Shown here piece by piece: positions 2,754 to 34,255 of a stretch of 64,000 bases of DNA. The notes beneath the pieces were generated by a model, which had not been told where the DNA came from, ran no database searches, and saw only the letters and a program-made list of their open reading frames with translations. Position numbers and translations under genes: made by a program. The stretch's first letter is position 1, and the number at the start of each line of letters is the position of its first letter. The DNA comes from Schmidtea polychroa. Taxonomy: Eukaryota. The DNA lies in assembly GCA_044892525.1 (NCBI GenBank), contig CM097885.1, positions 992,001 to 1,056,000 on the forward strand, in the 5' to 3' direction.

Positions 2754-3080
2754 TAATAACAATAAAAAAAAAATAATAATAATAATAAATAAATTAAAAT
2801 TAAATTAAAAAAAAATTAATTAAATAACGTAAGTAATTAAAATAAAATATTAATAAATAATTAATTAATTAAATGTAATAAATTGAAAATTAACTAAAGT
2901 AATTAATTAAAACAAAAAACATAATAAAATAATTAATTAATAAATTTTAAAAAAAAATTAAATAGTAGTAATTAAATAAATTTAAAAAAAAAATAAATAG
3001 AAATGATTCTATTGACCTATATTTGACCTGGACATTGGGATGACCTTGAAAGTGTCCTGGAGTCCTCACTATATACTACT

Positions 3081-11686: not shown

Positions 11687-14600
11687 CAATTAAATTTATG
11701 TGAATAATAAAATATATATTGTGAATTATTTGACTTCGTTAATTAAAATATGTTTTATCATTTAATAATTCATTTGTCCAATTAATTTAGATAATTAGTT
11801 TTAAGTAAGAATTATTATTTATCATGAAAAACTTTGCTTTGTTTTGAAAAATTAATGCCCATTTTATTTTAAATTAACACAGCTTTATTTTATGATTATT
11901 ACTAATTAAAATTTTATTCAAATTGAAATATTATTGTTACAATTTACACTCTTGTTAGAATATATTAAATGTAAATGTAAAATAATAACAATAAAAAAAA
12001 AATAATAATAATAATAAATAAATTAAAATTAAATTAAAAAAAAATTAATTAAATAACGTAAGTAATTAAAATAAAATATTAATAAATAATTAATTAATTA
12101 AATGTAATAAATTGAAAATTAACTAAAGTAATTAATTAAAACAAAAAACATAATAAAATAATTAATTAATAAATTTTAAAAAAAAATTAAATAGTAGTAA
12201 TTAAATAAATTTAAAAAAAAAATAAATAGAAATGATTCTATTGACCTATATTTGACCTGGACATTGGGATGACCTTGAAAGTGTCCTGGAGTCCTCACTA
12301 TATACTACTAATTATAATCATAATTTTCTTTAATTTAACCCTTTATTTACTTAATTTAGCCCTTGTTTACCGAATATAGAAGTTTAAAATATAGACCATT
12401 GATTACATTAATTTAAAAATGTATCCCTTAATTTACATAATTTCCATCTAAAATTATTTCAAAAAAATTTTTTTTCTAAAATTGTCATTGAAAAATATTT
12501 CATAAAAGTTTTCATTTAAAATTTTCATTGAAAAATATTTCATAAAAATTTTTTTTAAAAATTATCTTAAAAATTATTCCATAAAAATTTTCATTAAAAA
12601 ATTTCAATTCTCAAACACCTTCTATTATTTTGTTAATAAATTTAAAATCTTACTTTAATTTGCTTATTACATTACTTATTTAAAAATTATTACTTTAATT
12701 TACTTATTTAAAATATTTGACCATTGATTACTTAATTTAAAAATTTGGACCTTAATTAACTTTAATTTAATTTTTAGAACCTTAATTTACTTTAATTTTA
12801 AATTTTGACCCTTAATTAACTTTAATTCAAAATTTGGACATTAATTGAAAATTTTAGACCATACTTTTCCATAAAATTGTCATTGAAAAAATTTTCATTT
12901 CTCAGGCGCCGTTTAGTAGGTGGTTAGGAGCCCGCTTCAAATGCAAGCCGTTTTTTTGCTGCAACATTTGATTGCGCAATTGTTGGAACTTGTTTTTTTT
13001 TCTATTGAAAATACTAGAAAAAAAAAATAATCGTAGCTTACTGTACAACAAAAAAAATGAGTTGCAACAATTGCGTAATCAAAATTTGCAGCAAAAAAAA
13101 AGTTGCCGCAGACCCCCTCCCCCCACCTAAAATTTTCAATTAAGGTCTTAAATTTTCAATTAAGTAATTAAAGTCTAAATTTCTCAATTACAGTAAATTA
13201 TGGTTCTAAAAAATTAAATTACAGTAAATTATGGTCCAAATTTTCAAAAACAGTAAATTATGGTATATATTTTAAAACTTAAGTAAATTAAGGTCTAAAA
13301 TTTAAAAGTAAAGTAAATTTCAATTAAGTAAAGTAAGGTCTAAAATTTTCAATTAAGGTCTAAAATTTTCAATTAAGTAATTAAAGTCTAAATTTCTCAA
13401 TTACAGTAAATTATGGTTCTAAAAAATTAAATTACAGTAAATTATGGTCCAAATTTTCAAAAACAGTAAATTATGGTATATATTTTAAAACTTAAGTAAA
13501 TTAAGGTCTAAAATTTAAAAGTAAAGTAAATTTCAATTAAGTAAAGTAAGGTCTAAAATTTTCAATTAAGGTCTAAAATTTTCAATTAAAGTAAATTAAG
13601 GTACAAATTTTGAATTAAAGTTAATTAAGGGTCAAAATTTAAAATTAAAGTAAATTAAGGTTCTAAAAAATTAAATTAAAGTTAATTAAGGTCCAAATTT
13701 TTAAATTAAGTAATCAATGGTCAAATATTTTAAATAAGTAAATTAAAGTAATAATTTTTAAATAAGTAATGTAATAAGCAAATTAAAGTAAGATTTTAAA
13801 TTTATTAACAAAATAATTGAAGGTGTTTGAGAATTGAAATTTTTTAATGAAAATTTTTATGAAATATTTTTCAATGACAATTTTAGAAAAAAAAATTTTT
13901 TGAAATAATTTTAGATGGAAATTATTTAAATTAAGGGATACATTTTTAAATTAAAGTAATCAATGATCTATATTTTAAACTTCTATATTCGGTAAACAAG
14001 GACTAAATTAAGTAAATAAAGGGTTAAATTAAAGAAAATTATGATTATAATTATAATTAGATTTAAAGAATAATTACCTTTTCATTTAACACTACAGTGT
14101 TAATTCTTACCATTTTAGAATAATATTTTTTATCAAAGTTCTTATCTTGATTTATTTAATTTTAATTGAAAGTAATGACGAAATAGAACGTGTTGTCTTC
14201 AATTTTAATGAATTAATTTGAAATATTATTTAGATAAATATTTGTGTTTAAGTTATTCCTTAGTAATATTTTTTTTAGAGTTGATGGTTTTTGTGAATTT
14301 TTATCATTTTCATGAATTTCATGTGGATAGAATGAATATTTAAAAATTTTAAGTTAGTTCTAAGATAAATTTAATTAATTTCTTGATAATTGGATGCATT
14401 TTTATTGATTGGTTTTTTAATTTTAAATAAAAATTATTTTTAATGACAGTTAGGTTATTAATCACGTGATAGGATATGACTTTGTAATAATATTTTTTTT
14501 CATATATTTTCTAAGAATTTCATGTAGATTTATTTAAAAATTTAAAGTTTTAATGACGATTTTATTTGAATTTCTTGATAATTTGTTAAATTTTAAATAA

Positions 14601-15870
14601 AAATTAATTTTTTTTAATGACTGTTAGGTTAATAATTAAGTAATTGGTTTAATTTTAGATGACTTTGTAATGCATTTGACTAAATAATTTTTTTCAATAA
14701 TCTTCTAAGAATATTAACACATTGATGAACTTTTTTAAAAAAAACATAAGCTAAGAAACCAGTTAACCTTATAAAGAACTTTAAATTTACTTGATAATTT
14801 ACAGAAATAATATACAAAATTTAATTTACAGAAATAATTTACAAAATAATAATACAGAAATTTATGATTAAGTTTGCTTTTATGAACAATCAATATATAT
14901 CATCTCTAGTTAGGTATTTGATAGGTGAAATATTTGTAGTAAATAATAAGTTTATTATGTCTTTGTTACATAACTCGACTTTAGCGTCAAAATGTGTTTT
15001 TAAAATAAATTTTAATTTTAAAATACGGCAATGTAATATATTAATTTTTTCCTAACCTTCCTTGATTTTGATTGGTTAGAATTTGTTATTATAACCAATA
15101 ATAATCTATAAACAATAATCAATCATTAGTCACATTTAACAAATAATTAACCTTTAAAAATGAATTCTTTAATAGAAAACGTTATGAATGTTCGAGAAAA
15201 AATTCAGGAATTTGGTAAATTTTAATTTATTTATTAATTAATTTAGATAATATTAATGATGACAATTTAAAATCTTTTATTTTTTCTTAAATTTTACATT
15301 TACATTATATTCTAAAAAGAGAGTTAATTATAACAATAATATTTCAATTTGTATAAAATTTTAATTAGTAATTATTCAATTTGAATAAAATATTTATTAG
15401 AAATTATTTAATTTATTATAAAATAAAACGCTGTGTTAATTTTAAATAAACTGGATATTAATTTTTTGGAAAAAATAAATAAATAAAATAGTCTAAAAGA
15501 TTAAATTATGGTCTAAAATTTAAAATTTAAAAATTGAAAATTGAAAATTAAAAACTAAACTAATCAAACTAAATCAAACGCTATAACCTTAATTCAAGAA
15601 TTCACTAAAGTAGATCAGAAGATATTAATTATCAAAATGTAACAAAGACTCTGAAATTCATCAATTTCATCTAATGACCTGGTGATATTCAATACCATTC
15701 TCAAGAATGCTAAAGTCGGGAATTCTTTGAATTTAACAATTTCATCTAACTATCCGGCGATATTCGATCCGATTCTATAAAGTATTTATCTTTGTAGTTG
15801 AATAAAAGTTTATTGTTGATTATAGTTTATCATTAATTATTTTTTTGTTAGGGGTGTTAAAGAAAATACT

Positions 15871-16293
15871 TGACTGATTCATTTTTCTCAGATAAAATTT
15901 GTTCTGTAATCGGGAAATTCAAGGATGAGAATAAAGGAAATCAATATAAAGAATGGGTGTTTCTTCGTCCCAAGTGCTACTCACTCCAAGGCGATAAAAC
16001 ACTCTAAAAGCCAAAGGAATAAGACTTACAAATTCTAATATCACCCATGAAGCTTATAAAAAAAGTGTATACTGATGGTGGAACAGTGAGCATCCCATTA
16101 AAAAAGAATAGGAAGTGTCAATCATCAGTTGTATACTTTCATGACAGAAAAACGAGCTCTCCAATGTTTGGACGATAAAAGGCATTGGTACAATTGTAAT
16201 GAAAGCTATGCCTACGGTCACTATAAGATTCGTCACATGCATATTGCAACTTCTATGTCTAGAAATGAATGCAAATCGAAACAAGGACTTTAA
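15871..16293 (+). pseudogene. pPolB C-terminal fragment (unit 4)
   Basis: Near-identical to 2035-2457. Confidence 0.9.
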
Positions 16294-19200
16294 CAATTAA
16301 ATTTATGTGAATAATAAAATATATATTGTGAATTATTTGACTTCGTTAATTAAAATATGTTTTATCATTTAATAATTCATTTGTCCAAATAATTTAGATA
16401 ATTAGTTTTAGGTAAGAATTATTATTTATCATGAAAAACTTTGCTTTGTTTTGAAAAATTAATGCCCATTTTATTTTAAATTAACACAGCTTTATTTTAT
16501 GATAATTACTAATTAAAATTTTATTCAAATTGAAATATTATTGTTACAATTTACACTTCTGTTAGAATATATTAAATGTAAATGTAAAATAATAACAATA
16601 AAAAAAACATAATAATAATAATAAATAAATAAAAATTAAATTAAAAAAAAAATTAATTAAATAACGTAAGTAATTAAAATAAAATATTAATAAATAATTA
16701 ATAAATTAAATGTAATAAATTGAAAATTAACTAAAGTAATTAATTAAAACAAAAAACATAATAAAATAATTAATTAATAAATTTAAAAAAAAAATTAAAT
16801 AGTAGTAATTAAATAAATTTTAAAAAAAAATAAATAGAAATGATTCTATTGACATATATTTGACCTGGACATTGGGATGACATTGAAAGTGTCCTGGAGT
16901 CCTCACTATATACTACTAATTATAATCATAATTTTCTTTAATTTAACCCTTTATTTACTTAATTTAGCCCTTGTTTACCGAATATAGAAGTTTAAAATAT
17001 AGACCATTGATTACATTAATTTAAAAATGTATCCCTTAATTTACATAATTTCCATCTAAAATTATTTCAAAAAAATTTTTTTTCTAAAATTGTCATTGAA
17101 AAATATTTCATAAAAGTTTTCATTTAAAATTTTCATTGAAAAATATTTCATAAAAATTTTTTTTAAAAATTATCTTAAAAATTATTCCAATAAAATTTTC
17201 ATTAAAAAATTTCAATTCTCAAACACCTTCTATTATTTTGTTAATAAATTTAAAATCTTACTTTAATTTGCTTATTACATTACTTATTTAAAAATTATTA
17301 CTTTAATTTACTTATTTAAAATATTTGACCATTGATTACTTAATTTAAAAATTTGGACCTTAATTAACTTTAATTTAATTTTTAGAACCTTAATTTACTT
17401 TAATTTTAAATTTTGACCCTTAATTAACTTTAATTCAAAATTTGGACATTAATTGAAAATTTTAGACCATACTTTTCCATAAAATTGTCATTGAAAAAAT
17501 TTTCATTTCTCAGGCGCCGTTTAGTAGGTGGTTAGGAGCCCGCTTCAAATGCAAGCCGTTTTTTTGCTGCAACATTTGATTGCGCAATTGTTGGAACTTG
17601 TTTTTTTTTCTATTGAAAATACTAGAAAAAAAAAATAATCGTAGCTTACTGTACAACAAAAAAAATGAGTTGCAACAATTGCGTAATCAAAATTTGCAGC
17701 AAAAAAAAAGTTGCCGCAGACCCCCCCCCCCCCCCTAAAATTTTCAATTAAGGTCTAAAATTTTCAATTAAGTAATTAAAGTCTAAATTTCTCAATTACA
17801 GTAAATTATGGTTCTAAAAAATTAAATTACAGTAAATTATGGTCCAAATTTTCAAAAACAGTAAATTATGGTATATATTTTAAAACTTAAGTAAATTAAG
17901 GTCTAAAATTTAAAAGTAAAGTAAATTTCAATTAAGTAAAGTAAGGTCTAAAATTTTCAATTAAGGTCTAAAATTTTCAATTAAAGTAAATTAAGGTACA
18001 AATTTTGAATTAAAGTTAATTAAGGGTCAAAATTTAAAATTAAAGTAAATTAAGGTTCTAAAAAATTAAATTAAAGTTAATTAAGGTCCAAATTTTTAAA
18101 TTAAGTAATCAATGGTCAAATATTTTAAATAAGTAAATTAAAGTAATAATTTTTAAATAAGTAATGTAATAAGCAAATTAAAGTAAGATTTTAAATTTAT
18201 TAACAAAATAATAGAAGGTGTTTGAGAATTGAAATTTTTTAATGAAAATTTTTATGAAATATTTTTCAATGACAATTTTAGAAAAAAAAATTTTTTGAAA
18301 TAATTTTAGATGGAAATTATTTAAATTAAGGGATACATTTTTAAATTAAAGTAATCAATGATCTATATTTTAAACTTCTATATTCGGTAAACAAGGACTA
18401 AATTAAGTAAATAAAGGGTTAAATTAAAGAAAATTATGATTATAATTATAATTAGATTTAAAGAATAATTACCTTTTCATATTACACTACAGTGTTAATT
18501 CTTACCATTTTAGAATAATATTTTTTATCAAAGTTCTTATCTTGATTTATTTAATTTTAATTGAAAGTAATGACGAAATAGAACGTGTTGTCTTCAATTT
18601 TAATGAATTAATTTGAAATATTATTTAGATAAATATTTGTGTTTAAGGTATTCCTTAGTAATATTTTTTTTAGAGTTGATGGTTTTTGTGAATTTTTATC
18701 ATTTTCATGAATTTCATGTGGATAGAATGAATATTTAAAAATTTTAAGTTAGTTCTAAGATAAATTTAATTAATTTCTTGATAATTGGATGCATTTTTAT
18801 TGATTGGTTTTTTAATTTTAAATAAAAATTATTTTTAATGACAGTTAGGTTAATAATCACGTGATAGGATATGACTTTGTAATAATATTTTTTTTCATAT
18901 ATTTTCTAAGAATTTCATGTAGATTTATTTAAAAATTTAAAGTTTTAATGACGATTTTATTTGAATTTCTTGATAATTTGTTAAATTTTAAATAAAAATT
19001 AATTTTTTTTAATGACTGTTAGGTTAATAATTAAGTAATTGGTTTAATTTTAGATGACTTTGTAATGCATTTGACTAAATAATTTTTTTCAATAATCTTC
19101 TAAGAATATTAACACATTGATGAACTTTTTTAAAAAAAACATAAGCTAAGAAACCAGTTAACCTTATAAAGAACTTTAAATTTACTTGATAATTTACAGA

Positions 19201-19616
19201 AATAATATACAAAATTTAATTTACAGAAATAATTTACAAAATAATAATACAGAAATTTATGATTAAGTTTGCTTTTATGAACAATCAATATATATCATCT
19301 CTAGTTAGGTATTTGATAGGTGAAATATTTGTAGTAAATAATAAGTTTATTATGTCTTTGTTACATAACTCGACTTTAGCGTCAAAATGTGTTTTTAAAA
19401 TAAATTTTAATTTTAAAATACGGCAATGTAATATATTAATTTTTTCCTAACCTTCCTTGATTTTGATTGGTTAGAATTTGTTACTATAAACAATAATAAT
19501 CTATAAACAATAATCAATCATTAGTCACATTTAACAAATAATTAACCTTTAAAAATGAATTCTTTAATAGAAAACGTTATGAATGTTCGAGAAAAAATTC
19601 AGGAATTTGGTAAATT

Positions 19617-20900
19617 TATATTTAATCCATCCCAAGAATCAAAGGAAGTGAATAATCCATCATTGGATTCAACAACCAATCGGACCTGGGATTCAACAAA
19701 AGGCAATCCGACCTGGGATTCAACAACCAATCCATCATTGGATTCAACAAAAGGCAATCCGACCTGGGATTCAACAAAAGACAATCCGTCCTGGAATTCA
19801 ACCTCTAATCCGACCTGGGATTCAAAAGAAGAAGTATCTAATTTAATTTTTTTATTTGTATTATTTTTTTCTATAGTTGATGGTCTTTTAAAAACACTAT
19901 CTTTTTTAAAATTAAACCTATCTAAATGATTTTTATGTTTATTATAAAAAACGCTATATGTTACAGGGTCACTAGTCTTACATACGGGACATATAAAATA
20001 AGTTTTATTATAATATTTTTTCGTGTAATAATTCTCCATTATAGAAATGGCAATTATTATCATGTTCTTTCGATGAACAATAATTTGGATAAAGTATACC
20101 TATAAAATAAAAATTTAAATAACGTCATCGATATCGATATCATATTCTCCAAAATCTTCTCCAACATCTTCAATAAATTCTTCCTTATCTTCTCCAACAT
20201 TTTCATCAAATTCATCTCCAACAATTTCTCCAACATTTTCTCCAACAATTTCTCCAACATTTTCTCCAATATTTAATTCACTTAATCTTACATGCCTATA
20301 TGCAAGACTAGTATTTTTCCCCACCCAAACCCTTTTGTCATCTTTGTTAGTTAGTGCTATTTTATTATTTTTAATTGTAAAAATTTGATGATTTTTGTTT
20401 GTTAATTTTGTTTGAGGAATCGAAAAAATTTGATTAGTTTTATAACAATCCAGGTATGACTGATGTTTTATGTCACTACCTTTCAATGTTACACCTTTAG
20501 CCTTTTTTGTTTCTTCATCACCCAACAAGCTATAACACTTGGGTCTAAGAAAAACCCATTCCTTATATTTAAGACCTTTATTCTCGTCTTTGAACTATCC
20601 AATGACAGAATCAAGGTTCTTACTATATAACGAATGACAACTTTTGTAATCGAAGTATGTAATAAATTATCTCGAATCATTGCAGGTAAAAGAACCTCAA
20701 GTTTACAGTTAATGACTTCGAGTAAAAAAGAGTCTGTATCACCTGCAACGATATTAATTTTATTAACAAATTGATAAAAATCAATGAATCTTAAGCTTAT
20801 TTTGCCTAAATGCGCAATCAAAGAAATAAATTTTTCAGTCGTGATTGGGATGCAACCTAAAGTCCAATTTTTAAATTTGTTTAAACCATATTTAAGAATA
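19617..20900 (-). pseudogene. Rearranged lineage-B pPolB fragments (deleted core plus acidic tail fused to the N-terminal exon of another copy)
   Basis: Contains GDTDS, FLRPKCYS and KAKGV motifs, GENVGEIV repeats and the CPVC/ESQVGL N-terminus. It duplicates 32521-33830. Confidence 0.9.
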
Positions 20901-20929
20901 AAATTTTATGTATCCTTTCCTTTGTTGTT

Positions 20930-21110
20930 GTGATTATTATTATTATTATTAATATTATTATTATTATTATTATTAATATTATTATTATTAATATTATTAT
21001 TATTAATATTATTAATATTATTATTATTATTATTAATATTATTATTATTGTGAAAAATATTATTATTTTTAATTAATTTTATTATTATTCGAATAAATAT
21101 TATTATTTGT
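20930..21110. repeat. (ATT)n-rich microsatellite
   Basis: Seen directly in the sequence. Confidence 0.9.
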
Positions 21111-21387
21111 AACATAAAGACTGCCTTTGCCTGAAGCATGCACAGTGCAAGTTAACAAAGGCATGACTAACAAAGACAGTCACATGTAATTTTGAGTGAT
21201 TTACATTACATGCATGCATGCGTGTGATTGGTTGAGAGAGTAAAATATTCAATGTATATGTGTGTGTGTCTATATTCTCATTGGCTGGGACAGGAAAATA
21301 TTCATTCTCTTTATAAACATTGACAAATCTAAAATTTGTCACAATTATTTTGAAATTTTGAAAATCAATTTGAAAAAAAAAACCAAA

Positions 21388-22720
21388 ATGGAAACCAACA
21401 ATAATAATAATAATCGAGTATTGAGAGGTCTTTTGACTAACGGTAAATTATTATTATTTTTATTCGATTTTTATTATATTTTATTTTAGGACCGTTCGAC
21501 TGGTATGAAGTTACCGAAAACGATGCCATTTTAAATGTGGAAAATATCTTTGGTAAATTTAATATTTTAATTTTTATTAAATTAATTTTCATTACAGAAA
21601 ATGATAATAGCGACGATGATGTCGTTTTTCTTGGTCAAACGGCTGCCCCAGTTATTGATGTTGGGCAAAACAATGTTTTCAAAGAAAAAAGTACATTTAT
21701 TTTATTTTAATTTTTATTAAATTAATTTTCATTACAGAAAATGAAAATAGCGACGATGATGTCGTTTTTCTTGGACAAAGTGATGCCCCAGTTAATGATG
21801 TTGGGCAAAACAAGGTTATCAAAAAAAAAAGTAAATTTATTTTACTTTAGTAATTTATTTTTAAAAATTTTATTTTTTAGCGTTTAATGTTTCAAATGCC
21901 CCTTATTTCAATGTCGACATCGATGAAGACGAAAATAATAATAGTATGGAAGATTTTATGGAAAATGACTCTTCAAAGGTATCGGAAAATGAGTCTTCTG
22001 ATGTGGTGGACCGAATTCCTCATGACTCTTCGGAGGATGATTCTGACATTGAATCACAATGTAAGATATATTTATTTATTTTATATATATATATATTTTT
22101 TTTGATATTAAAATTTCGTAAACACTTTTTTAAATATTTTTGATAAAAATTTCTTTAATTTTTTGATGAAAATTTCTTAAATATTTTGATGAACCTTATG
22201 ATCAAACTTATGAAGAAAATGAATTATGAATTTATGAAGAAAATGATTTATGCCCAAATTATGAAGAAAATGATTTATGCCCAAATTATGATGATTTATG
22301 ATTTATGCCCAAATTATGAAGAAAATGATTTATGCCCAAATTATGATGATTTATGATTTATGCCAAAATTATGAAGAAAATGATTTATGCCCAAATTATG
22401 ATGATTTATGATTTATGCCCAAATTATGATTTATGATGAAAATGATTTATGATTTACGAAGAAAATGATTTATGCCCAAATTATGATGATTTATGATTTA
22501 TGACCAAAATTATGATGAAAATTATGATGAAAATGATTTATGACCAAAATTATGATGAAAATATGACCAAAATTATGATGAAAATGATGAAAATATGACG
22601 AAAATTATGAAGAAAATACTATGTTTTTGAAATATAATCAAAGTATTTAAAAAAGTGATTACAAAATTATAGTTATAAAATAAATCCTTGTAGTTTGCAA
22701 TGTGCATCTACAATAGTTAA

Positions 22721-22781
<61 letters not shown>

Positions 22782-23150
22782 TTAATAATAATAATATTAT
22801 TAATAATGTAGTCTACAGTAAGCATGTAGCTACATAGTAGTCTGCAGTGGGCATGCAGCTACTTCTCTTTAATATAAATAATAATAATGTAGTCTACAGT
22901 AAGCATGTAGCTACATAGTAGTCTGCAGTGGGCATGCAGCTACTTCTCTTTAATATAAATAATAATGTATTCTACAGTAAGCATGTAGCTACATAGTAGT
23001 CTGCAGTGGGCATGCAGCTACTTCTATTTAATATAATAATAATATAATAATAATAATAATAATATAAATAATCTGACCCTTCTACTGTAGTCTGCAGTGA
23101 GCATGCAGCTACATAGTAGTCTGCAGTGAGCATGCAGCTACTTCTCTTCA

Positions 23151-23238
<88 letters not shown>

Positions 23239-25421
23239 CTGACTCGTCTAATATTAAACATATTCATATAATAATCTGACCTATCTACTAAAATCTCTCT
23301 AATATTCTCTCGAATATATTAACCTATTTTCTATAAGGATTTATCATCATTTGTTATATAGTTCATTTGAATTAAATAACAAATGATGATAAATCCTTAT
23401 AGATGTAACAATTAATAACAATTAGAAAAAGAATAAAACTTTAATTTTATTATTTAACAGGTAGACTATATCCGAACTATTGTCAAACATCAATTGGACA
23501 TAGCGATAAATGTCATCGAACAATGAAAAAGTATTATAGAAAGACGTTTAATTCGCTCAACTTTTTTATATGCCCCAAATGTGTAACGAGCGAAAAAATA
23601 AAATATAGGGAATTTTTTAATAAACATCATAGTCACTTAGGGCAATTTTCGATATCAAAAAATGTTTTATTTAAAAAAATAAATAAAAAAAAATTACAAA
23701 AAAATTTATCAAAAAATTTACCAAAAAATACTATTAAAAAAGATATAAAAAAAGATATTAAAAAAGATTTAAAAAATATTAAAAAAAATATTATAAAAGA
23801 AAAAACAGATTCTATTAAAAAAGATGCTATTATTATTAAAAAAGATACTATAAATATTATTAAAAAAGATATTATAAATATTAAAAAAGATTCTATTAAA
23901 AGACCTGCTGGTTTAATTAAAAATTGCATTCCTAATAAATTATCGCGACCTGAAGTGATAGTCATCAGCAAAGATGAATGTGTAGCTTCAACATCGTTCA
24001 CACAGCATGCACCCTCTACACAACAAGCACCCTCTACACAACAAGCACCCTCTACACAACAAGAAGTGATAGTCATCAATGATGAATGTGTAGCTTCAAC
24101 GTCTTTCAACATATGTCAAATAGGCGGCTCTTTGTTTGAACCTATGGTAGAATCCGATTTGAACGGATCGCGTAAAACTTTAAAATTTGATATTAGAAAT
24201 CAAAACTTAGTAAAAATAGCCCTAACATCAAAAATTGAAGATAGATTAATAGAGGAAATAGAAAAGATGGGCAATGTAAAAATTCAATTCACAATTTTAA
24301 TTAAATTTGAAAAAGATGGGGAGATCCGGGATAATTATTTTTCAAACAATGCTCAAGTTTTTACATCAAACTTTATAAACGAGGGGGTGAGCAAATTAAA
24401 TGAAAAGATTGAGCAATTCACCTATTTAGGAAGCGGGTGGCGAGTAATGAATATTTTAGAAATAGATTTTATTTTAACGAAATACGCACCCGTTAGTAGA
24501 TTATCCGGACATAGCTATATAAAAACCCCATCAGCATTAAAATTAAAACATGCAATAATTAATGTTAAAAACAACGACCATAAGTGCTTCTTGTATAGCA
24601 TTCTTGCACTTTTAAAAAGAGAAGAAATAGGTCGTAATCACCAAAGAGCCGCTAAATATATAGAATTTTTACCTCTATTAAATTATGACGAAGACAGCGA
24701 TTGCCCGATGAGGCTATGCAACATTCCCAAATTTGAAAGAAAAAATAGAGATTTAAACTTGAGCATAAACGTTCTGTCTTATAATCCAGCCAGTTCTGAT
24801 TTAGATATTTCTGAGGATTATGTAGCTCACCACCCTCATCTTAATATAGTACATCGCTCCAAGGTTATAGACGGTAGACCAATTTATTTATTACTTTTGA
24901 GTAATAAAGATAAATATCATTATACAGCCGTGACAGACTTGGACAAATTAATGAATTGTCATGAAAATGAAAATGTAAATGTTCAAATAAAGTGTAACTG
25001 GTGCCCACATTGCTTAAATGGCTTTAGATATAAGAATGCTTTCGATCAGCATGTTGCTCTATGCTGTAAAAATCAGACTGGCACAACTTTGTATACACTT
25101 CCTAAAAATAAAGATTTATTATTCACAGATTACGCAAAAACCGTTACACCTCCCTTCGTAATTTATGCCGATTTTGAATCGGTTTTACCAGAACATGAAA
25201 CATATCATCAAATACATTTACCCATATCAGCAGGTCTTTTATTAATTAATAATTATACACACACTAAATTTTATTATTATTTTTTTGGACCTAATTGTAT
25301 TTTGGATTTTTTGAGGAAAGTGGAGGAAATTGCTGTCACAATTGTCCTGCCATATTACGAACTTGAAGGTCATAAAGGCATGTCCGATGATTTAATGAAC
25401 TCGTGCTCAATTTATATATAA
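21388..25421 (+). CDS. Spliced pPolB N-terminal gene (lineage A), ending shortly after the first exonuclease motif; exons 21388-21442, 21490-21552, 21598-21690, 21738-21830, 21881-22060, 23461-25421
   Basis: The 632 aa ORF has Polinton-type pPolB motifs: LGSGW, SGHSYIKTP..IINVKNNDHKCFLYSILA, HY, CPHCLNGF..H..C and PPFVIYADFES. The upstream exons are joined by five phase-1 GT-AG introns (47, 45, 47, 50, 1400 nt) that keep the frame open. The pPolB identity is strong; the exon model is inferred. Confidence 0.85.
22190..22620. repeat. Degenerate minisatellite (TATGAAGAAAATGATTTATGCCCAAAT-like) in the predicted long intron
   Basis: Direct tandem repetition. Confidence 0.85.
22721..23238. repeat. 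(AAT)n tracts flanking four ~60 bp palindrome-rich repeats (22806-23146)
   Basis: Unit ATGTAGTCTACAGTAAGCATGTAGCTACATAGTAGTCTGCAGTGGGCATGCAGCTACTTCT, four copies. Confidence 0.9.
23330..23403. other. Perfect 28 bp-stem hairpin with an 18 nt partly paired loop
   Basis: TCTATAAGGATTTATCATCATTTGTTAT (23330-23357) is the exact reverse complement of 23376-23403. Confidence 0.9.
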
Positions 25422-25448: not shown

Positions 25449-25886
25449 ATGTTAGCAAATATAAATTATCGAGGAAATTTTGATGTATCGAATATGAGGT
25501 TCCCACCAGGGAAACCCCAGCAAATTATCGATAGAAGTGGGAAATATCCGATAATATTTTTCAAGACTGGTAAATGCCGAATCATGGGATGTAAGAAACC
25601 TTTGGATATTAATAAATTACAATATCGAATAAATAATATTACAATCCAATCAATTACCGTTACTATGGATATGGGACATAGTATCAATCTATATAACATG
25701 TCGAAAAAATGTGATTGTATGTTTGAACCGGAATTGTTTCCGGCACTAAGACTATTAAAATATAACCCTATATGTGTCAACGTGTTTGCTAGTGGAAATG
25801 TTGTCATGTTGGGGTTGAGAAATTTGGAGTATAGAGAATTTGTTGACAATGTTCGAAATGAGATAATTTCATTGGTCGATTTCTAA
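25449..25886 (+). CDS. Divergent TATA-box-binding protein (TBP)-like protein, 145 aa
   Basis: Two TBP-repeat signatures: IIFFKTGKCRIMGCK (cf. LIFSSGKMVCTGAK) and FEPELFPAL...VNVFASGNVVMLG (cf. YEPELFPGL...LIFVSGKVVLTG). TATATATAAA lies just upstream at 25413. Confidence 0.88.
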   Translation: MLANINYRGNFDVSNMRFPPGKPQQIIDRSGKYPIIFFKTGKCRIMGCKKPLDINKLQYRINNITIQSITVTMDMGHSINLYNMSKKCDCMFEPELFPALRLLKYNPICVNVFASGNVVMLGLRNLEYREFVDNVRNEIISLVDF

Positions 25887-25963: not shown

Positions 25964-26318
25964 ATGTACAAATTACCAAGCTCTGCAAACCTCATGAAGG
26001 ATATCGACGATTACGGTAAATTTTAAATTTTTATTTTCACATTATTTACTATTTATTATTTTAGAAAAATATTTAGATGTAATGATCAATACACTCAAAT
26101 ACTATTATCCTCAAATTATTGAAATCATCAAGGATCGAGAAGCAGAAATAATTCCGGACCTCATTTTCTACTCAACCCAAATAAGAATTATGGAGGTATT
26201 CCATCAATTCTTATGGGATATAAAGATTAACAGAACAGTGAAAGAAATGAAGCCGGAATATCAATGTATGTTCGGATGTTCCTGCTGTGCCGATCGATAT
26301 CGGCGATATGTGGAATGA
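25964..26318 (+). CDS. Hypothetical 101 aa protein with Cys-rich C-terminus; exons 25964-26015 and 26065-26318
   Basis: A 49 nt phase-1 GT-AG intron joins MYKLPSSANLMKDIDDY in frame to the 78 aa ORF ending CMFGCSCCADRYRRYVE. ATTGG boxes lie upstream and AATAAA downstream. Confidence 0.7.
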
Positions 26319-26658
26319 AAGTTAGTGAAAACTCTGAGAAGGTTTCACTACTCCCGGATTGTAGATAAATATCAATAAATGTATTTTTGTATTGAGTTTT
26401 TTTTTTATATTTGATGTAGAATTAGAAATAATAATAATAATAATAATAATATAAATAATAGAATTAGAAATAATAATAATAGAAGTAATGATAGTAATAA
26501 TAAAACATTAATAATATGTACATTAATAGAACATAAATGCAGCATTAATGCAAATGAAATGCAAATTTAAACAAAGACATACTGTAATCTGATTGGTTGA
26601 TAGGCATGAGTCAAAGGTATAAAAACCCTGTAACATTTAAATTTATTCATTATTCACG

Positions 26659-27069
26659 ATGACCAAGAAAATTTCAAGCACCGAAAAACCTAAAGAAATG
26701 GTACAACCAGTTCAAATGTTCCACAACTACAAAATGTATTTTTTGAAAGAAGAAATCAATATGAAATTGGTTGCACCAGTCAAGCTAATTCCGACTAAAT
26801 TCGAATTCTTATCCGGCACGCTTTCAATGATTGATGTCAAAACTATTGATGATGTTTTTAAACGGATAGATTCGAATCTATCGTGTAATCAACATGCATG
26901 GTTCAACAATAGATATGCAAGATTTTATGATGCTTTTGATGAAATCAGTTTCAAAGAAAATGAAAATTGGTATATAACAATAGCAATCCAGGGATATAAA
27001 GTTGATAATAATGATGTATATTCTCCTATTTGGAAAATTATGTCTGCTAGACTTTCACAAGTATTTTAA
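26659..27069 (+). CDS. Hypothetical 136 aa protein (possibly an OB-fold ssDNA-binding protein)
   Basis: Intact ORF with GATTGGTT (26591), TATAAAA (26618) and a TCATT initiator-like site upstream, and AATAAA downstream. The fold is a weak guess. Confidence 0.7.
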   Translation: MTKKISSTEKPKEMVQPVQMFHNYKMYFLKEEINMKLVAPVKLIPTKFEFLSGTLSMIDVKTIDDVFKRIDSNLSCNQHAWFNNRYARFYDAFDEISFKENENWYITIAIQGYKVDNNDVYSPIWKIMSARLSQVF

Positions 27070-27195
27070 TGTTATATTTAATAAATGTATTAGTCAGATT
27101 TGTTTTTCTCTTTATTAATTGCAACATAAATGCAAATGACATGGAAATTTAACAAAGAAAATCTATAAACAAAATTATAATATAGTTTTAAAGTG

Positions 27196-27593
27196 ATGAA
27201 AATGACTGCAGAAAAAGGTTAACATGATTAATTAATTACCGAATTATTTATTATTTAGAATTTTTAATCAACTTTTTGTTGGAAAAGTTAGCAGAAATAT
27301 CTGGTGTGAAAATTGAGGACATATTATCTATTACAAATGCCTTAAATATCGGCTGGTTAGTTGAGAGTCAAGATACAGGATTTGATGATGAGGAAGAAAC
27401 TCAAGAAACCGATACTCAAGAAATTGATGAGGAAATCTATGAACCTATAGATGAACCTATAGAGGAACCTATAGAGGAACCTATAGAGGAACCTAAAGAT
27501 GAATCTAAAGATAATATTACGAATGATTGTATTGATCATGTCGTTGAAAATATAATGAAATGTGGAGATGACGACTGCGAATGTGTTAATTAA
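27196..27593 (+). CDS. Small acidic hypothetical protein with EEPI repeats; exons 27196-27217 and 27259-27593
   Basis: A 41 nt phase-1 GT-AG intron supplies an ATG to the otherwise ATG-less 105 aa ORF. AATAAA immediately follows the stop. Confidence 0.6.
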
Positions 27594-27676: not shown

Positions 27677-28197
27677 TTAATTTTTATTTAAAAATCTGGT
27701 TAAAATATACAAAATAGCAACACCTGTTGCAAGTTTTACATAGTTTTTAAATTTTCTTTTCTGATCATCAATTTCCTTCGCATTTCTGGCGAGTTGATTG
27801 AGTAGTCCCCATCCGCCATTGGCTTCAATCCATGGTTGAAACTTTGACTTGATTATCTAGAAAATAAATATTAATAAAATATAAATTATAAAAGTATTAC
27901 TTCTTGAGACCACTGATAATAGTGCTCTGAGTCCCATAGACTTCTTTGGATTATTATTTTCATATAAGCGAACCCTATTAGTATTCGGGTCCACTTCATC
28001 TGATCGTCGCATAGACAGTTAAAAATTCTATTAAAATAGAATTTTTTGGTTTCGAGACAATCAGAATTGATCACATCTTCATAATCAATGTGATTACCTT
28101 CTATAATCTTTTCGGTCCGATCGACCAGGAAACAGAGGCTTTCCATAATATTCCTGTTGACGAGTTCTCTTAAAAGATTTTCCATAAATTGAGACAT
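27677..28197 (-). CDS. Bcl-2 family protein, 158 aa; exons 28197-27901 and 27856-27677
   Basis: Exon 1 has BH1-like FNRIFNCLCDDQMKWTRILIGFAYM. A 44 nt phase-0 GT-AG intron (27857-27900) leads to IIKSKFQPWIEANGGW (BH2) and the hydrophobic tail VKLATGVAILYILTRFLNKN*. Confidence 0.88.
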
Positions 28198-28302
28198 TTT
28201 TACAATAATTTAAAATATGATGTTTTATTTATACTAATACCGGATGATTTTGATTGGTTGATAAACTATAAATGTAAAAGAAAGGTTTTGATTTGATACA
28301 CC

Positions 28303-28800
28303 ATGAAAACTATATTCATATTGCTAATTATTATAACGAGTGTGTGCTCACACAATACAACAATAACAGTGGAGTCTTTTAATAAATCAATATGTGTTTG
28401 TCCGAATACAGCCAAGTTGATGGATATTTTATATATTCTGGACAAACCAAAATGGTCAAAGCATCCAGGAAAAAGAATATCTCAAAGATTGGAGAATTTA
28501 GAAAACAGTTATGAACTATCATTTGAATATATACAAAATATAAAATTTGAATTGATTGATCATATTAAGGTTTTCAATAACTCTATTGTTGAAAATAAAA
28601 TGAATATGAAAATAATTGATAAGAAGCATGATTATTTGTTAAAAAAGATTGAATTATTATTAAGAGAAATTCAAACAATCAAAGGATCAATAGAATCTCT
28701 GAAAATCAATTCTACGTTACCAATTTCAAACAATATTGCTGCGAATAGTACATCAATATTTAGTTTACCTTTGTTAATTTTACATTATTTTATTGTTTAA
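28303..28800 (+). CDS. Predicted secreted/surface coiled-coil glycoprotein with a GPI-signal-like C-terminus, 165 aa
   Basis: Signal-peptide-like MKTIFILLIIITSVCS, several N-x-S/T sequons, a heptad-rich middle and the hydrophobic end SIFSLPLLILHYFIV*. GATTGGTT (28252) and TATAAA (28267) lie upstream. Confidence 0.7.
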   Translation: MKTIFILLIIITSVCSHNTTITVESFNKSICVCPNTAKLMDILYILDKPKWSKHPGKRISQRLENLENSYELSFEYIQNIKFELIDHIKVFNNSIVENKMNMKIIDKKHDYLLKKIELLLREIQTIKGSIESLKINSTLPISNNIAANSTSIFSLPLLILHYFIV

Positions 28801-28920
28801 ATAAATGTATGTTTTGTTGATTTGTTGAGCGTGACCAGTACCCTTGTAAGCATTACCCATAGGGGGACAAAATATTTTGTCGGATAGACTAGGAGTATAT
28901 AGACTCGGAGTATATAGATT

Positions 28921-29040
<120 letters not shown>

Positions 29041-29194
29041 AATATATGGCTCATTCGAAAGGTCTTGGATTGAGCTTTAAAATGAGCTATCGATTATTAA
29101 TTTTCGTTGGCGAGAACTTTGAACAAATTAAAAATAAAATAATAATATTTTTAAAAATAATAATAAAAATAATAATATTTTTTAAAAATAATAA

Positions 29195-29745
29195 TATGAC
29201 CTTGGGAATGACCTTGAAAATTCTGATGAGTCATCGGATGAGTCATATGACCTTGAAAATTTTCAATGAGTCATAGTATGACTCACGTGACCTTGAAAAT
29301 GACCTTGGTGAGTCATAGGATGAGTCAGATGACCCTGTGAAAATTTTTTCAAGGGCATATGACTCATACTATGACTCATATGACCTTGAAAATGTCCTTG
29401 ATGAGACATAGGATGAGTCATGGCCTTCGTTTAAATGACCTTGAAAATTTTGATGAGTCATACTATGAGTCATATGACCTTGGGGAAAATTTCCATGGCC
29501 ACATGAGTCATAGTATGAGTCATATGACCTTGAAAGTGACCTTGATGAGTCATGGACTTTGTTTAAATGACCTTGAAAAATTTTTTGACCTTGATGCTTT
29601 ATATTATGAGTCATACGACCTTGAAAATGACCTTGATGAGTCATAGGATGAGTCATGGTCTTTGTTTAAATGGCCTTGAGAAATTTGATGAGTCATACTA
29701 TGAGTCATGGTCTTTGTTTCAATGACCTTGATGAGTCATATGTCT
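29195..29745. promoter_or_regulatory. Subterminal array of ~20 TGA(G/C)TCA (AP-1 consensus) and over a dozen TGACCTTG (NR5A/ERR-type) motifs
   Basis: The motifs are seen directly. A regulatory role is inferred. Confidence 0.6.
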
Positions 29746-29790
29746 TTGTTTTACTTTTAGACTTAGCATATTTTTGAAAAATATGACGAC

Positions 29791-29832
29791 CGGGGGGGGG
29801 GTACTGTGCTAGCGGTGCCCAATCCATCTACT
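29791..29832 (-). mobile_element. Putative Polinton-type terminus (5'-AGTAGATGGATTGGGCACCGCT on the minus strand)
   Basis: It begins AGTAG, resembles AGTAGGTGGTTAGGAGCCCGCT at 3683, and marks an abrupt junction to unrelated sequence. Confidence 0.5.
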
Positions 29833-30006
29833 ATAATAATAATAATATATCAACCAAATACTATACAACACATAAAAGATTAACTAAACACATAAAAATA
29901 ACTAGACACATAACAAAACATATAAACATTAACTAGACACATAAAAAACATAAAAATTTACCAAACAAATAACAAATGTATGTATATAAACTTTTATTTA
30001 ATAAAA

Positions 30007-33000
30007 TTAGTCCTCATCAGACAAAATAACGTCATCGATATCGATATCATCTTCTCCAAAATCTTCTCCAACATCTTCAATAAGTTCTTCCTCATCTTCT
30101 CCAACATTTTCACCAAATTCATCTCCAACAATTTCTCCAACATTTTCTCCAACAATTTCTCCAACATTTTCTCCAATATTTAATTCACTTAATCTTACAT
30201 GCCCATTTTTTCAGCAGCTTCAGGGAAATCATCCAACTTCTCATTTAGCTCAGAATAAATTACAAAATCAACTTCAAGAGTGTATCCATAAGACAAAGAA
30301 TCAAGATTTAAATTCCTACTTTCATCCATTATTAAATCAAATCCATCAAGAACCCAACTAAATTCACCACAAGGTAATGATTGACTTAAAGCCCAACCAT
30401 AAAGATTATTAATATCTATATAAAGTAACTCGGTGTTCTCATCGGTTTTTACGTAATGCTAATTCACAAAAGTAATACCGCCTCTTATTCCACCCTCATA
30501 AAAGCTAAACATTTCGTTTTCAGTTATGAGCTCAATTGGTTCATTTAAAGACATTAATGCCGAAGACCAAGACATACCTGGAATTCCGAAATAATTCAAT
30601 GGTTCCAATCTATTGTGAGCAATAGATTTCAACCGAAACTGATGAAAGAAATCAGCCAAAAGAAAACAATCAAGTTTTAAGTAGATCATCATATAATCTA
30701 ATAAAATTAGGCAATTAGTTTCTACCCAAATCTCCTGAGCTTTTTCATACTAAAGCTCAGTAACACCCTCCCAGATTGGTGGTAATTCATAAGTAGTTTG
30801 GAGAATATCTAAAGATGTAGCGAAATTATAAGGGAAGATTCCTTTTTCAGAAACTATAGTGCCAGAAAAAACAGAATTAGTAAAAGGCAAAGAATTCAAA
30901 GTTTTGACTGCTTTAGCTAAAGAATCATTAACAAATTGATAAGAATCAATGAATTGATAAGAATCAATTCTTTTGCCTAAATGCGCAATCAAAGAAATAA
31001 ATTTTTCAGTCGTTATTGGGATGCAACCTAAAGTCCAATTTTTAAATTTATTTAATCCGTATTTAAGTATATGATGCATATCGTATCCCTTCAAGTTGTG
31101 AAATACGATAGGCAAAATTTTATTTATTTTCTTATTTTTGTTACATGTGCTACAAGCTGCACCCAAATATTTCCCCGTAAAATGATCGTGATCTCTAACA
31201 GGATCAACGATAGATTTCATACAAAGATAACAAACAGATGCACTAACAAATTGACGTTGTTCAATTTTCGTTAATTTAATCATAGGTTTCCTACCCATTT
31301 TATAATAAAAAGGAAGAACCTTATTTAATGCTATATCCTCTATAGCACTTAAAAAACTCTCGACGCAATCTAAACCTATGAACTGTTGATAAGATTTAGA
31401 TACGTCAAAGTTATTTACAAGTAAAAGACCAGCAGATATTGGCATGTGTCGTTGGAAATGAACATTATCAGAAGGTAAAATAGCCTCAAAATCGGCATAA
31501 ACTACAAAAGGAGGAGTTACTGTTTTCGACCAGTCAGTAAACTGCAATAATTTATTTTGAGGGAAAGTGTAAAGAGTTGTTCCTAATTGATTACGTTTAC
31601 ATAATATTTCATGTTTTTCCAGTGCGTGTTTATACCTAAACCCATTCAAACACCGATGGCACCATAATGAACGTATGCGTGTAGGACAACTAGTGTTGAT
31701 ACCACAATTCAGTAACCTATTTAAATTACTTATAGCAACGTAAGGGAAATTGTTTCCTTTATTTAAAAGTAGTAAATTAATTACAGTTCCATTTAAAACT
31801 TTGGAACGATGTATAATATCTAAATGTGGATGTTTTAATACATAATTATCAATTAATTGTTTGCTATTATCATATGAAAAAACATTAATTATTAAACCCG
31901 AATTTTTAGATTCAAATTTCCTAATGTCTTTTAATTTCATAGGTAATTCTAACGGGTCGTATACTAAGTCAGATAAATTATAACTCGATGTCCTATCTCT
32001 AGCATAACTACTAACTTCATCATATTTTAAAACAGCTAAAATGCTATATAAAAAACATGAATCATCAGTGTTTTTTATATTAATTAAACAATATTTATTT
32101 TTTAGATAAGTAGGTGTTTCAATGAAACTCCTACCACTTAATCTACTTAACCTACTTATTTTTGTTATGGTGAAATGTATTTCAGTAATATTTTTTATAT
32201 TCCAACTGCTTCCTAACTCAGTAATATTAGTAATTTTCTCATTTAATTCTTTAAGGCCTTCATCAAAAAATGATGCAGTTAAAGGCTTTGCCAAATTTGA
32301 GATATTATTAACCTTTATTTCCCCGTCTTTTTCAAATTCGATTGTTATTCCGAATTGAATTTTGACGGAGCCTTATTCGTTAATAATATCTCGTAATTTT
32401 ATTATTAGTTGTTCAGGAAATATTACTTCTTTTATATTTAAGTTGCTGTATTTAAGCTTAATATTTGATGGGTACCTCTTAAATCTCTTTTACTGTCGGT
32501 ACATTTCCACCTATTTGTATTATATTTAATCCATCCCAAGAATCAAAGGAAGTGAATAATCCATCATTGGATTCAACAACCAATCCGACCTGGGATTCAA
32601 CAAAAGGCAATCTGACCTGGGATTCAACAAAAGACAATCCGTCCTGGGATTCAACAACCAATCCATCATTGGATTCAACAAAAGACAATCCGACCTGGAA
32701 TTCAACAAAAGACAATCCAGCCTGGGATTCAACCTCTTATCCGACCTGGGATTCAAAAGAAGAAGTATCTAATTTAATTTTTTTATTTGTATTATTTTTT
32801 TCTATAGTTGAGGGTCTTTTAACAACACTATCTTTTTTAAAATTAAACCTATCTTAATGATTTTTATGTTTATTATAAAAAACGCTATATGTTACAGGGT
32901 CACTAGTCTTACATACGAGACATATAAAATAAGTTTTATTATAATATTTTTTCGTGTAATAATTCTCCGTTATAGAATGGCAATTATTATCATGTTCTTT

Positions 33001-33029
33001 CGATGAACAATAATTTGGATAAAGTATAC
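30007..33029 (-). pseudogene. Lineage-B pPolB pseudogene (stops, frameshifts, large deletion of the polymerase C-half)
   Basis: The 514 aa ORF has YADFE, VRDHDHFTGKYLGAAC, VFHNLKGYD and KGIFPY, followed by LLADFF, GIRGG and YIDINNLYG. It then jumps from PEAAEK directly to the acidic tail. Confidence 0.93.
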
Positions 33030-33044
33030 CTATAAAATAAAAAT

Positions 33045-34255
33045 TTAAATAACGTCATCGATATCGATATCATATTCTCCAAAATCTTCTCCAACATCTT
33101 CAATAAATTCTTCCTTATCTTCTCCAACATTTTCATCAAATTCATCTCCAACAATTTCTCCAACATTTTCTCCAACAATTTCTCCAACATTTTCTCCAAT
33201 ATTTAATTCACTTAATCTTACATGCCTATATGCAAGACTAGTATTTTTCCCCACCCAAACCCTTTTGTCATCTTTGTTAGTTAGTGCTATTTTATTATTT
33301 TTAATTGTAAAAATTTGATGATTTTTGTTTGTTAATTTTGTTTGAGGAATCGAAAAAATTTGATTAGTTTTATAACAATCCAGGTATGACTGATGTTTTA
33401 TGTCACTACCTTTCAATGTTACACCTTTAGCCTTTTTTGTTTCCTCATCACCCAACAAGCTATAACACTTGGGTCTAAGAAAAACCCATTCCTTATATTT
33501 AAGACCTTTATTCTCGTCTTTGAACTTTCCAATGACAGAATCAAGGTTCTTACTATATAAGGAATGACAACTATTGTAATTGGAAGTATGTAATAAATTA
33601 TTTCGAATCATTGCAGGTAAAAGAACCTCAAGTTTACAGTTAATGACTTCGAGGAAAAAAGAGTCTGTATCACCTGTAACGATATTAAATTTATTAACAA
33701 ATTGATAAGAATCAATGAATCTTAAGCTTATTTTGTCTAAATGCGCAATCAAAGAAATAAATTTTTCAGTCGTGATTGGGATGCAACCTAAAGTCCAATT
33801 TTTAAATTTGTTTAAACCATATTTAAGAATATGGTGCATATCGTATCTCTTCAAGTTGTGAAATACGATAGGCAAAATTTTATTTATTTTCCTATTTATG
33901 TTGCATGTGCTACAAGCTGCACCCAAGTATTTCCCAGTAAAATGATTGTGATCTCTAACAGGATCGACGATACATTTCAAACAAAGGTAACAAACAGATG
34001 CACTATAGCACTTAAAAAACTCTCGACGCAATCTAAACCTATGAACTGTTGATAAGATTTAGATCCATCAAAGTTATTTACAAGTAAACGACCAGAAGAT
34101 ATTGGCATGTGTCGTTTGAAATGAACATTATCGGAAGGTAAAATAGCCTCAAAATCGGCATCAGCTACAAAAGGAGGAGTTACTGTTTTCGACCAGTCAG
34201 TAAACTGTAATAATTTATTTTGAGGGAAGGTGTAAAGAATTGTTCCTAACTGATT
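33045..34255 (-). pseudogene. Internally deleted lineage-B pPolB copy
   Basis: The 328 aa ORF fuses FIDSYQFVNK directly to NIVTGDTDS; GKFKDE, LRPKCYS and KAKGV follow. Confidence 0.92.

Follow-up and report, generated by a model that had tools for sequence, protein, structure and literature searches.

A two-exon Bcl-2-like gene, very probably derived from host bcl2-1, in a Polinton element of the planarian Schmidtea polychroa

The window analysed here, a stretch of 64,000 nucleotides from the genome of Schmidtea polychroa, contains on its minus strand a 103-aa open reading frame (ORF; 28197-27886) with KWTR at the position of the BH1 motif of Bcl-2 proteins. This locus raised three questions: whether the frame is one part of a spliced gene, where such a gene came from, and what it does for the DNA that carries it. 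A sequence-only reading had described the frame and its divergent BH1, and had proposed that the removal of a 44-nt GT-AG intron adds WIEANGGW and a hydrophobic tail to give 158 aa. The coordinates and motifs were as described, and the proposed gene model was supported both by reading of the sequence and by comparison with related loci.

The ORF begins with ATG at 28197, and its end runs into an A+T-rich stretch. In the two-exon model, exon 1 (27901..28197, minus strand) comprises 99 codons and encodes 99 aa, the intron (27857..27900) has 44 nt in phase 0 with GT-AG borders and 91% A+T, and exon 2 (27677..27856) encodes 59 aa plus the stop. The donor GT was found at 27900 and the acceptor AG ends at 27857; no other GT or AG was present within the 44-nt stretch when 140 nt around the junction were scanned. 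Exon 1 includes what we take, from the general anatomy of the family, to be an alpha1/BH4-like helix, a short loop, alpha2-alpha5 with WTR of BH1 and the first part of alpha6. Exon 2 comprises the BH2 motif WIEANGGW, a linker, a C-terminal membrane anchor and a short tail. The intron lies 8 codons before the first Trp of BH2, in agreement with the sequence-only reading. The best 17-residue hydropathy value of the C-terminal tail was 1.62, compared with 1.39 for host bcl2-1. Exon 2 was also considered as an independent ORF, and this was rejected; it contains no Met and thus cannot be a gene on its own. In assembled contigs from four runs, which were only guessed to be RNA, no joint at 27856/27901 was among the 15 joints listed, all from run X7, with 22 more beyond that list. 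One contig of run X1 starts exactly at 27856, but this single run is of uncertain kind and the contig was not counted as splice evidence.

The two exons were scanned separately against Pfam, and Bcl-2 (PF00452) was the top match for both exon 1 (E 0.019, 15.9 bits, profile 11-66) and exon 2 (E 0.33, 12 bits, profile 86-100). The matches were colinear and both fell below the curated cut-off of 31.4 bits. The corresponding scores of relatives were 32.7 bits for an intronless sister gene, 43.3 for host bcl2-1 and up to 34.5 for sister copies with in-frame introns. Bcl-2-family chains ranked first in the PDB sequence searches with each exon, at non-significant E-values. A 12-row alignment profile, in which host paralogs were included, matched Bcl-xL at 3e-20, and the homology to a bona fide Bcl-2 protein, bcl2-1 of Schmidtea mediterranea, was significant over the whole domain (66 bits).

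A structure model of exon 1 alone, rather than of the full-length protein, had a pLDDT of 67 and six helices. All 42 rows listed by Foldseek for this model were Bcl-2 family structures, but with E 0.68 or worse, and VIA ranked M11 first (Z 7.4, rmsd 4.0 over 90 residues), with helical repeats of no relation mixed in among its rows. Viral Bcl-2 proteins were among the fold look-alikes of exon 1, all of them weak; the Atlas look-alikes at 0.90-0.92 carried PF00452 on 12-46% of their members. Nothing significant was found by fold search among predicted viral structures, where the best E-value (1.9) belonged to an iridovirus BCL2-like protein. For the intronless sister, a fold predicted from the single sequence reached a pLDDT of only 55 and was set aside as poor.

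The canonical BH1 motif NWGR was absent from the window gene, in which Trp and Arg are kept and Asn and Gly are replaced. Host bcl2-1 reads RWSR at this position. Because the validated host gene also lacks Asn and Gly, KWTR does not exclude membership of the bcl2-1 subfamily, and because it already has WSR, most of the departure from NWGR was inherited. The idea that KWTR reflects viral divergence was thus for the most part not upheld. A BH2 motif ending in GGW and a C-terminal membrane anchor were both present. The features of the pro-apoptotic Bak, Bax and Bok proteins were not seen: the small residue is missing from alpha2, the Asp varies among the element families, and Bok proteins scored 4 bits or less against the element protein. 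The BH3 death motif of Bak, Bax and Bok is LxxxGD; it was not found in the element protein, and no BH3 death motif was conserved across the element families.

The exon structure was compared with that of host genes and of related elements. A host-clade profile was built only from three host-type bcl2-1 sequences, and the window gene, scored with X at the exon border, reached 73 bits, whereas the best of 1000 shuffles reached 10.1. Residues 10-98 of exon 1 aligned with profile positions 37-125 and residues 2-56 of exon 2 with positions 128-182, so that the two exons abut with neither gap nor overlap. Twenty two-exon-type sister loci, 32-87% identical to the window protein, were fetched from other element families. 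GT-AG was found at the same codon in 18 of them, with intron lengths of 30-60 nt distributed over all three frames; the two exceptions (L085 and L093) had deletions that removed one splice site. Locus L085 was considered as a possible intronless copy of the window's family, which was rejected, as its acceptor had been deleted instead. Read-through or frameshifting in place of splicing was also rejected, because the intron lengths occupy all three frames and the in-frame introns end in TAG. In two sister families (L061-L064 and L068; L090, L091 and L095), a microsatellite of ATT or AT repeats was located inside the new intron. These introns vary from 38 to 60 nt between copies, and both splice sites are fixed.

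The dN/dS values ranged from 0.04 to 0.17 in the exon-1 pairs (six pairs, one of which had saturated dS) and from 0.07 to 0.44 in six exon-2 pairs, which means that 11 of the 12 exon comparisons lay between 0.04 and 0.44 and the twelfth was the saturated one. Three of the six exon-2 comparisons were weaker, with dN/dS of 0.26-0.44 and p from 6e-4 to 0.08 (0.04 and 0.08 for the two weakest). Differences by codon position in exon 2 were 9/3/19 against L062 (p 0.002) and 10/9/18 against L061 (p 0.14). In the 30 young copies chosen by DNA similarity, 32 coding variants were counted, of which 17 were synonymous compared with about 20% expected, the variants being non-independent events; a count on all 45 copies was set aside, since 30 of the 60 loci had been picked by protein similarity. 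Both exons were open and both splice sites were present in 42 of the 45 distinct top-scoring copies, a fraction that is biased upward because the copies were selected as best matches. Both exons are under purifying selection in the spliced frame.

These data bear on the explanation that the gene is a passenger, that is, a decaying processed pseudogene or a chance pair of ORFs that hitchhikes with the element and is neither spliced nor translated. Many older copies contain stops or frameshifts, and the element copy in the window is rearranged and without integrase and capsid genes, as would be expected of a passenger. However, the purifying selection on both exons in the spliced frame, the third-position bias, the lack of Met in exon 2 and the retention of GT-AG while intron length drifts through all three frames speak against this explanation, which we consider scarcely credible. 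Judged from the sequence comparisons, the locus almost certainly contains a real spliced gene.

The genome searched (781 Mb, mostly in four large contigs) gave 136 PF00452 matches among the 150 scored, which comprised host paralogs, domains of Burro polyproteins and further element families. One host gene was 89% identical to the 'Bcl2-like protein' ACW83059.1 of S. mediterranea, which a supplementary row of PMC4993586 identifies as bcl2-1. Such high identity to named S. mediterranea proteins places the host close to that planarian. RNAi of bcl2-1 was described as leading to total lysis (PMC4993586) and to systemic cell death or death (PMC6970515, citing the primary paper). The host ortholog was found at a single locus and contains a 2,972-nt phase-0 intron directly after GGW. 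This ortholog (L082 653-1159) lies head-to-head with an exon that has no Pfam match and presumably resembles an M20 peptidase, going by what we take to be the motif. The gene in the window is not the ordinary single-copy host ortholog, which is a separate locus.

The element protein matched S. mediterranea bcl2-1 with the 66 bits given above and the bcl2-1 relative P0013 with 61.5 bits, whereas it scored 11.2 bits or less with six other host paralogs and 8.5 bits with the Burro domain. A 5-residue gap was common to the element proteins and bcl2-1 and was absent from the other paralogs. The identity between the window protein and host bcl2-1 was only 25%. In trees with the host paralogs, the element genes grouped with bcl2-1 with moderate support only (69/88, 82/84, and 91/90 with Burro included), and this group was never starred; Burro had a very long branch and was treated as unplaced. 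Searches for homologs of exon 1 yielded nothing beyond copies of its own element family, and no relative was found in viral contigs searched with the intronless protein or in metagenome contigs searched with exon 1.

Alternatively, the gene would have been transferred sideways, with another virus or the Bcl2 genes carried by other adintoviruses as its source, in which case the likeness to bcl2-1 would be due to convergence or long-branch attraction. Adintoviruses of other animals carry Bcl2 (PMC8502044), and the support for the element-plus-host group, never starred, came from trees without those adintovirus sequences. Such an origin is nevertheless very improbable in view of the 55-bit gap to the other paralogs, the extension of the match through the tail exon, the gap of five residues shared with bcl2-1, and the 43-51% identity of the intronless sister to bcl2-1; a search of 1.84 billion representatives gave a single match, at 63% identity. 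The phylogenetic and score data suggested that the element gene very probably descends from the host bcl2-1 lineage. The earlier description of the gene as captured was borne out, in that it lies in a Polinton and its closest relative is one single-copy host gene. The term 'viral-type' holds for the virus-like element that carries it, but not for its descent, which leads to the host bcl2-1 lineage, and no known viral Bcl-2 emerged as a relative. Elsewhere in the genome, seven Bcl-2-family genes lie in a cluster on C4 (G000:C4:89948841-90831822; L072). They are nearly identical, have the canonical NWGR and lack an intron after GGW, and are possibly a retroposed and tandemly expanded Bak-like paralog.

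The gene is cargo of a young, very high-copy Polinton/Maverick family. There were at least 40 DNA matches at 99% (all 40 scored, from 1657 candidates) and at least 150 protein matches at 96% or more (all 150 scored, from 2382 candidates), 149 of the latter without a stop. The 26-29.7-kb arm of the window, including a 165-aa ORF, was carried by all 30 DNA-picked loci. Polintons were recognized by long terminal inverted repeats (TIRs), AG...CT termini, a 6-bp target-site duplication (TSD) and a length of 15-25 kb, and these were all found on a sister copy (G000:C1:103189166-103208406), which has 19,241 bp between matching termini, identical 6-bp flanks and a TIR of at least 850 bp at 92%. Only the right end of the window copy was found. 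The right TIR and right terminus occupy 28756..29832, with the terminus, TIR and TSD taken from the sister copy and the inner TIR border approximate.

The sister copy contains, between a TBP-like gene and the protein-primed polymerase gene (pPolB), an A32-type ATPase, an integrase with rve and chromo domains, an adenain protease and a 407-aa protein. Pfam matches in the sister copy (L084) were Pox_A32 (30.3 bits) and Peptidase_C5 (26.8 bits), and rve (24.4 bits) plus Chromo fell below the cut-off in a frame with a low-complexity run. The 407-aa protein had no Pfam match; PF21738 (DJR-like) is found on 15-24% of the members of its Atlas look-alikes at 0.97-0.98, with a recognition value below threshold. 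Its position and size fit a capsid gene, and its assignment as the likely capsid is taken as a lead. The N-terminus of pPolB in the arm was 38-48% identical to the pPolB of the intronless-gene element (L081), the sister copy contained a putative 794-aa continuation of pPolB, and PF03175 matched related pPolB fragments within the window.

The window copy is a derivative of this structure. The plus-strand region 20897..25421 comprises a leader, which has four candidate introns (45-50 nt), and the first ~620 aa of pPolB. The segment 20897-25384 is inverted relative to the sister copy, and pPolB is cut at ~25384, at about residue 620. The ATPase-integrase-capsid-protease module is absent, and the Bcl-2-like gene is intact. 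The inversion junction was common to 4 of 43 matches, all within 0.6-1.4 Mb of C1, which suggests that the rearranged window copy was locally duplicated. The copy at L083 was interrupted by the end of a different Polinton (L083 8006-8570), which was inserted into the ORF equivalent to that at 25998; this end has a subterminal array of 7 CRE/bZIP-like and 2 AP-1 words. The end of the L081 element had no bZIP-type array, and such arrays may be common in these TIRs. Around the element, positions 1-19400 of the window contain an AT-rich macrosatellite of about four ~4.6-kb units, with a partial copy near 53150-55460. The surroundings also hold fragments of a non-LTR retrotransposon (RT, PF00078), a hAT-type transposase and a further pPolB family in several copies (39354-46608, 57234-59091, 29833-34005, 59317-63100).

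The accessory arm further comprises a TBP-like gene (25449..25886, plus strand; PF00352, 53.5 bits) and three additional ORFs within 25998..27593 on the plus strand, at 25998-26318 (with a candidate 49-nt intron at 26016), 26659-27069 and 27228-27593. A likely promoter of the Bcl-2-like gene lies at 28226..28257 on the minus strand, with a CCAAT box at 28252-28257 and a TATA-like box at 28226-28233, in the 105-nt gap between the gene and the head-to-head ORF that starts at 28303. A CCAAT box about 55-70 nt upstream of the ATG was also found in L061, L062 and the intronless L071, and no CCAATC was present near the start of the host gene. The head-to-head ORF (28303..28800, plus strand, 165 aa) has hydrophobic N- and C-termini, a coiled-coil-like middle and no Pfam match above the cut-off. 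Its start resembles a signal peptide and its C-terminus is hydrophobic, and the product may be a secreted or anchored surface protein.

The Bcl-2-like gene was also described as re-intronised in the sequence-only reading, and this proved correct: the 2,972-nt host intron is missing, and the new intron is common to several element families. The element gene runs without interruption through GGW into the tail, which shows that the post-GGW intron of the host is missing from it. This boundary is described as the conserved, ancestral one of pro-survival Bcl-2 genes (PMC8998228), and GT was found at the same place in three other fetched host paralogs (L073, L077, L078). The element intron instead corresponds to a point between host residues 126 and 127 and precedes the position of the host intron by 16 codons. 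No intron was present at this site in the host gene or in the intronless family.

The intronless Bcl-2-like gene (144 aa; L081 4778-5209, G000:C1:15405777-15406208) belongs to a pPolB/TBP element with a different gene order. It is 43-51% identical to bcl2-1 and occurs in 11 full-length copies at 97% identity or more, 9 of them without stops, plus many decayed copies. Its element shares with the window arm pPolB, a TBP of 53% identity and an ORF of the 26659 type of 34% identity; integrase and capsid genes were absent from the 10 kb fetched around L081. In the tree, the new-intron group (81/87), the intronless group (95/99) and the host group (97/97) formed a trichotomy in which no pairing was rejected (p-AU 0.21-0.36).

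The simplest reading of these data is that a spliced mRNA was captured and that one lineage then gained an intron. The intron history might also have been different without any change in function, with either two independent captures of bcl2-1, one remaining intronless and one gaining an intron, or one capture followed by loss in the intronless family. The trichotomy is compatible with both, and the two element types have different gene orders and tail sequences. On the other side, the shared pPolB, TBP and 26659-type ORF and an equally spaced CCAAT box are simplest under one capture, and the intron position is new relative to the host in every version. We regard such a different history as quite possible, though short of an even chance. 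Short introns look like a habit of these elements, because five other candidates of 45-50 nt and similar style are present in the arm and leader. Introner-derived introns were reported in dinoflagellate Polinton-like viruses (PMC11957031).

The explanation considered best, which we hold to be likely overall, is that of a functional accessory gene that is derived from bcl2-1, spliced and pro-survival. Its first two steps are well supported: an ancestral Polinton would have acquired the pro-survival host bcl2-1 without the post-GGW intron, presumably by way of a spliced mRNA, and a short AT-rich intron would then have arisen 16 codons upstream in one element lineage; the version carried by a related pPolB/TBP element is intronless. 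By comparison with relatives, splicing would yield a tail-anchored Bcl-2-fold protein of 158 aa with a shortened loop, probably transcribed from the element-borne CCAAT/TATA promoter head-to-head with the 165-aa ORF. The protein would reside on mitochondria or the endoplasmic reticulum via its tail, like host bcl2-1 and viral Bcl-2 proteins, and bind BH3 segments of host Bak/Bax-like or BH3-only proteins, and apoptosis would be delayed while the element replicates its linear DNA and reintegrates. Selection would act mainly for the element's own spread. The anti-apoptotic role is suggested by the phenotype of the donor, by the retention of BH2 and of the Arg in BH1, by the fact that no death motif is conserved, and by the way in which viral Bcl-2 proteins generally behave. 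Given a real spliced gene of bcl2-1 origin, a pro-survival function can be assumed with fair confidence.

Against this explanation stands the 25% identity to host bcl2-1, which leaves room for a change of partners. With the same origin and splicing, the protein might be a Bcl-2-fold modulator that no longer sequesters Bak/Bax and has another target, such as autophagy via Beclin, innate-immune signalling, or host bcl2-1 itself as a dominant negative by which cell death would be timed to release. Other targets of this sort are known for several Bcl-2 folds of poxviruses and herpesviruses. The divergence from the donor together with the long stem branch, and the best structural rows of exon 1, which include M11 bound to the Beclin 1 BH3 and vaccinia A49 (weak Z), would fit such a change. 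So would Thr in place of the BH1 Gly; in mouse Boo, BH3 selectivity is changed by a Ser at that position (PMC8998228). However, the donor, which is pro-survival in vivo, itself has Ser in place of the Gly. The window's family and the sisters closest to it retain the BH1 Arg, the BH2 motif and the tail anchor, and no death motif of the BH3 type is conserved across families. A changed job is thus unlikely.

A more far-reaching possibility is that Polintons give the host hundreds of stress-inducible extra copies of a survival gene, with AP-1-like arrays in the TIRs switching the element on after injury and the Bcl-2 protein protecting stem cells. The tandem array of the TIR (29227-29738 of the window) contains 20 of the 23 TGASTCA words of the whole window, a word that we take to be the AP-1 consensus; the shuffle expectation of 4.75 is an unfair null for this count because the array is repeat-derived. 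The array occurs at both ends of the sister copy (L097 1-400; L098 1-260) and lies ~1 kb from the promoter of the Bcl-2-like gene. This possibility is speculative and distinctly improbable; it would be the DNA-virus counterpart of the Burro1 mutualism. If true, the intron-bearing and intronless families (at least 150 near-identical versus about 11 copies) would form a natural experiment, which would ask whether intron gain lets a captured gene escape silencing and expand.

The closest named protein to the product of the preferred, pro-survival gene is S. mediterranea bcl2-1 (ACW83059.1; C9WPR4; FJ807655.1), which is colinear over both exons including the tail anchor. Both have a non-canonical BH1, WSR in bcl2-1 and WTR in the element, and the common 5-residue gap. 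They differ in that bcl2-1 is a single-copy chromosomal gene of 184 aa, whose N-terminus and loop are longer and whose ~3-kb intron follows GGW, whereas the element gene is multi-copy, encodes 158 aa with 25% identity, and has its 44-nt intron 16 codons upstream. Viral Bcl-2 proteins (gammaherpesvirus M11, ASFV A179L, myxoma M11L, iridovirus GIV66 and adenovirus E1B-19K) are likewise short, tail-anchored or compact Bcl-2 folds carried by a DNA virus, but they showed no significant sequence relationship to the element gene, which is spliced and has a donor traceable in the same genome.

Among mobile elements, adintoviruses were found to carry homologs of Bcl2 and IAP, and Bcl2 appears as a label three times on the supplementary maps (PMC8502044). 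These adintovirus/Polinton genes represent the same element class with an anti-apoptotic-type accessory gene, likened here by label and not by sequence. Section 3.1 and part of the supplementary text of that paper contain no planarian example, donor identification or splicing, and its remaining parts may hold a closer example. Bcl2 cargo in adintoviruses is therefore already published, and what is new here is the named essential donor and the history of intron loss and gain. A literature search that lay mostly outside subscription journals and Repbase reports found no paper on a planarian Polinton Bcl-2. In planarians, BCL2-like and IAP domains were described in Burro giant Gypsy retroelements (PMC6431247), and the B-IAP of Burro1 protects stem cells according to a 2026 report summarised in PMC13465017. 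Burro is likewise a planarian mobile element with host-derived apoptosis regulators. It differs in that the domain belongs to a Gypsy LTR polyprotein with frames of up to ~3000 aa, whereas the window gene is stand-alone, has two exons and lies in a DNA element; the Burro domain, with its very long branch, reached only 8.5 bits against the Polinton protein.

The donor gene is named, essential in vivo and present in the same genome beside the intronless and intron-bearing captured forms, which makes the captured gene a clean, datable case of intron loss and gain. With only 25% protein identity to the host copy, the element gene can be targeted specifically by RNAi in a standard regeneration model. 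If the protein serves the element only, it would be a tidy new example and not a new principle. Polintons follow Burro as a second type of mobile element that carries apoptosis regulators in planarians. This suggests that, where heredity passes through somatic stem cells, control over cell death acts in general as a filter on which elements succeed. The element has its own copy of a host survival gene, which selection maintains, probably so that cells do not die while the element multiplies.
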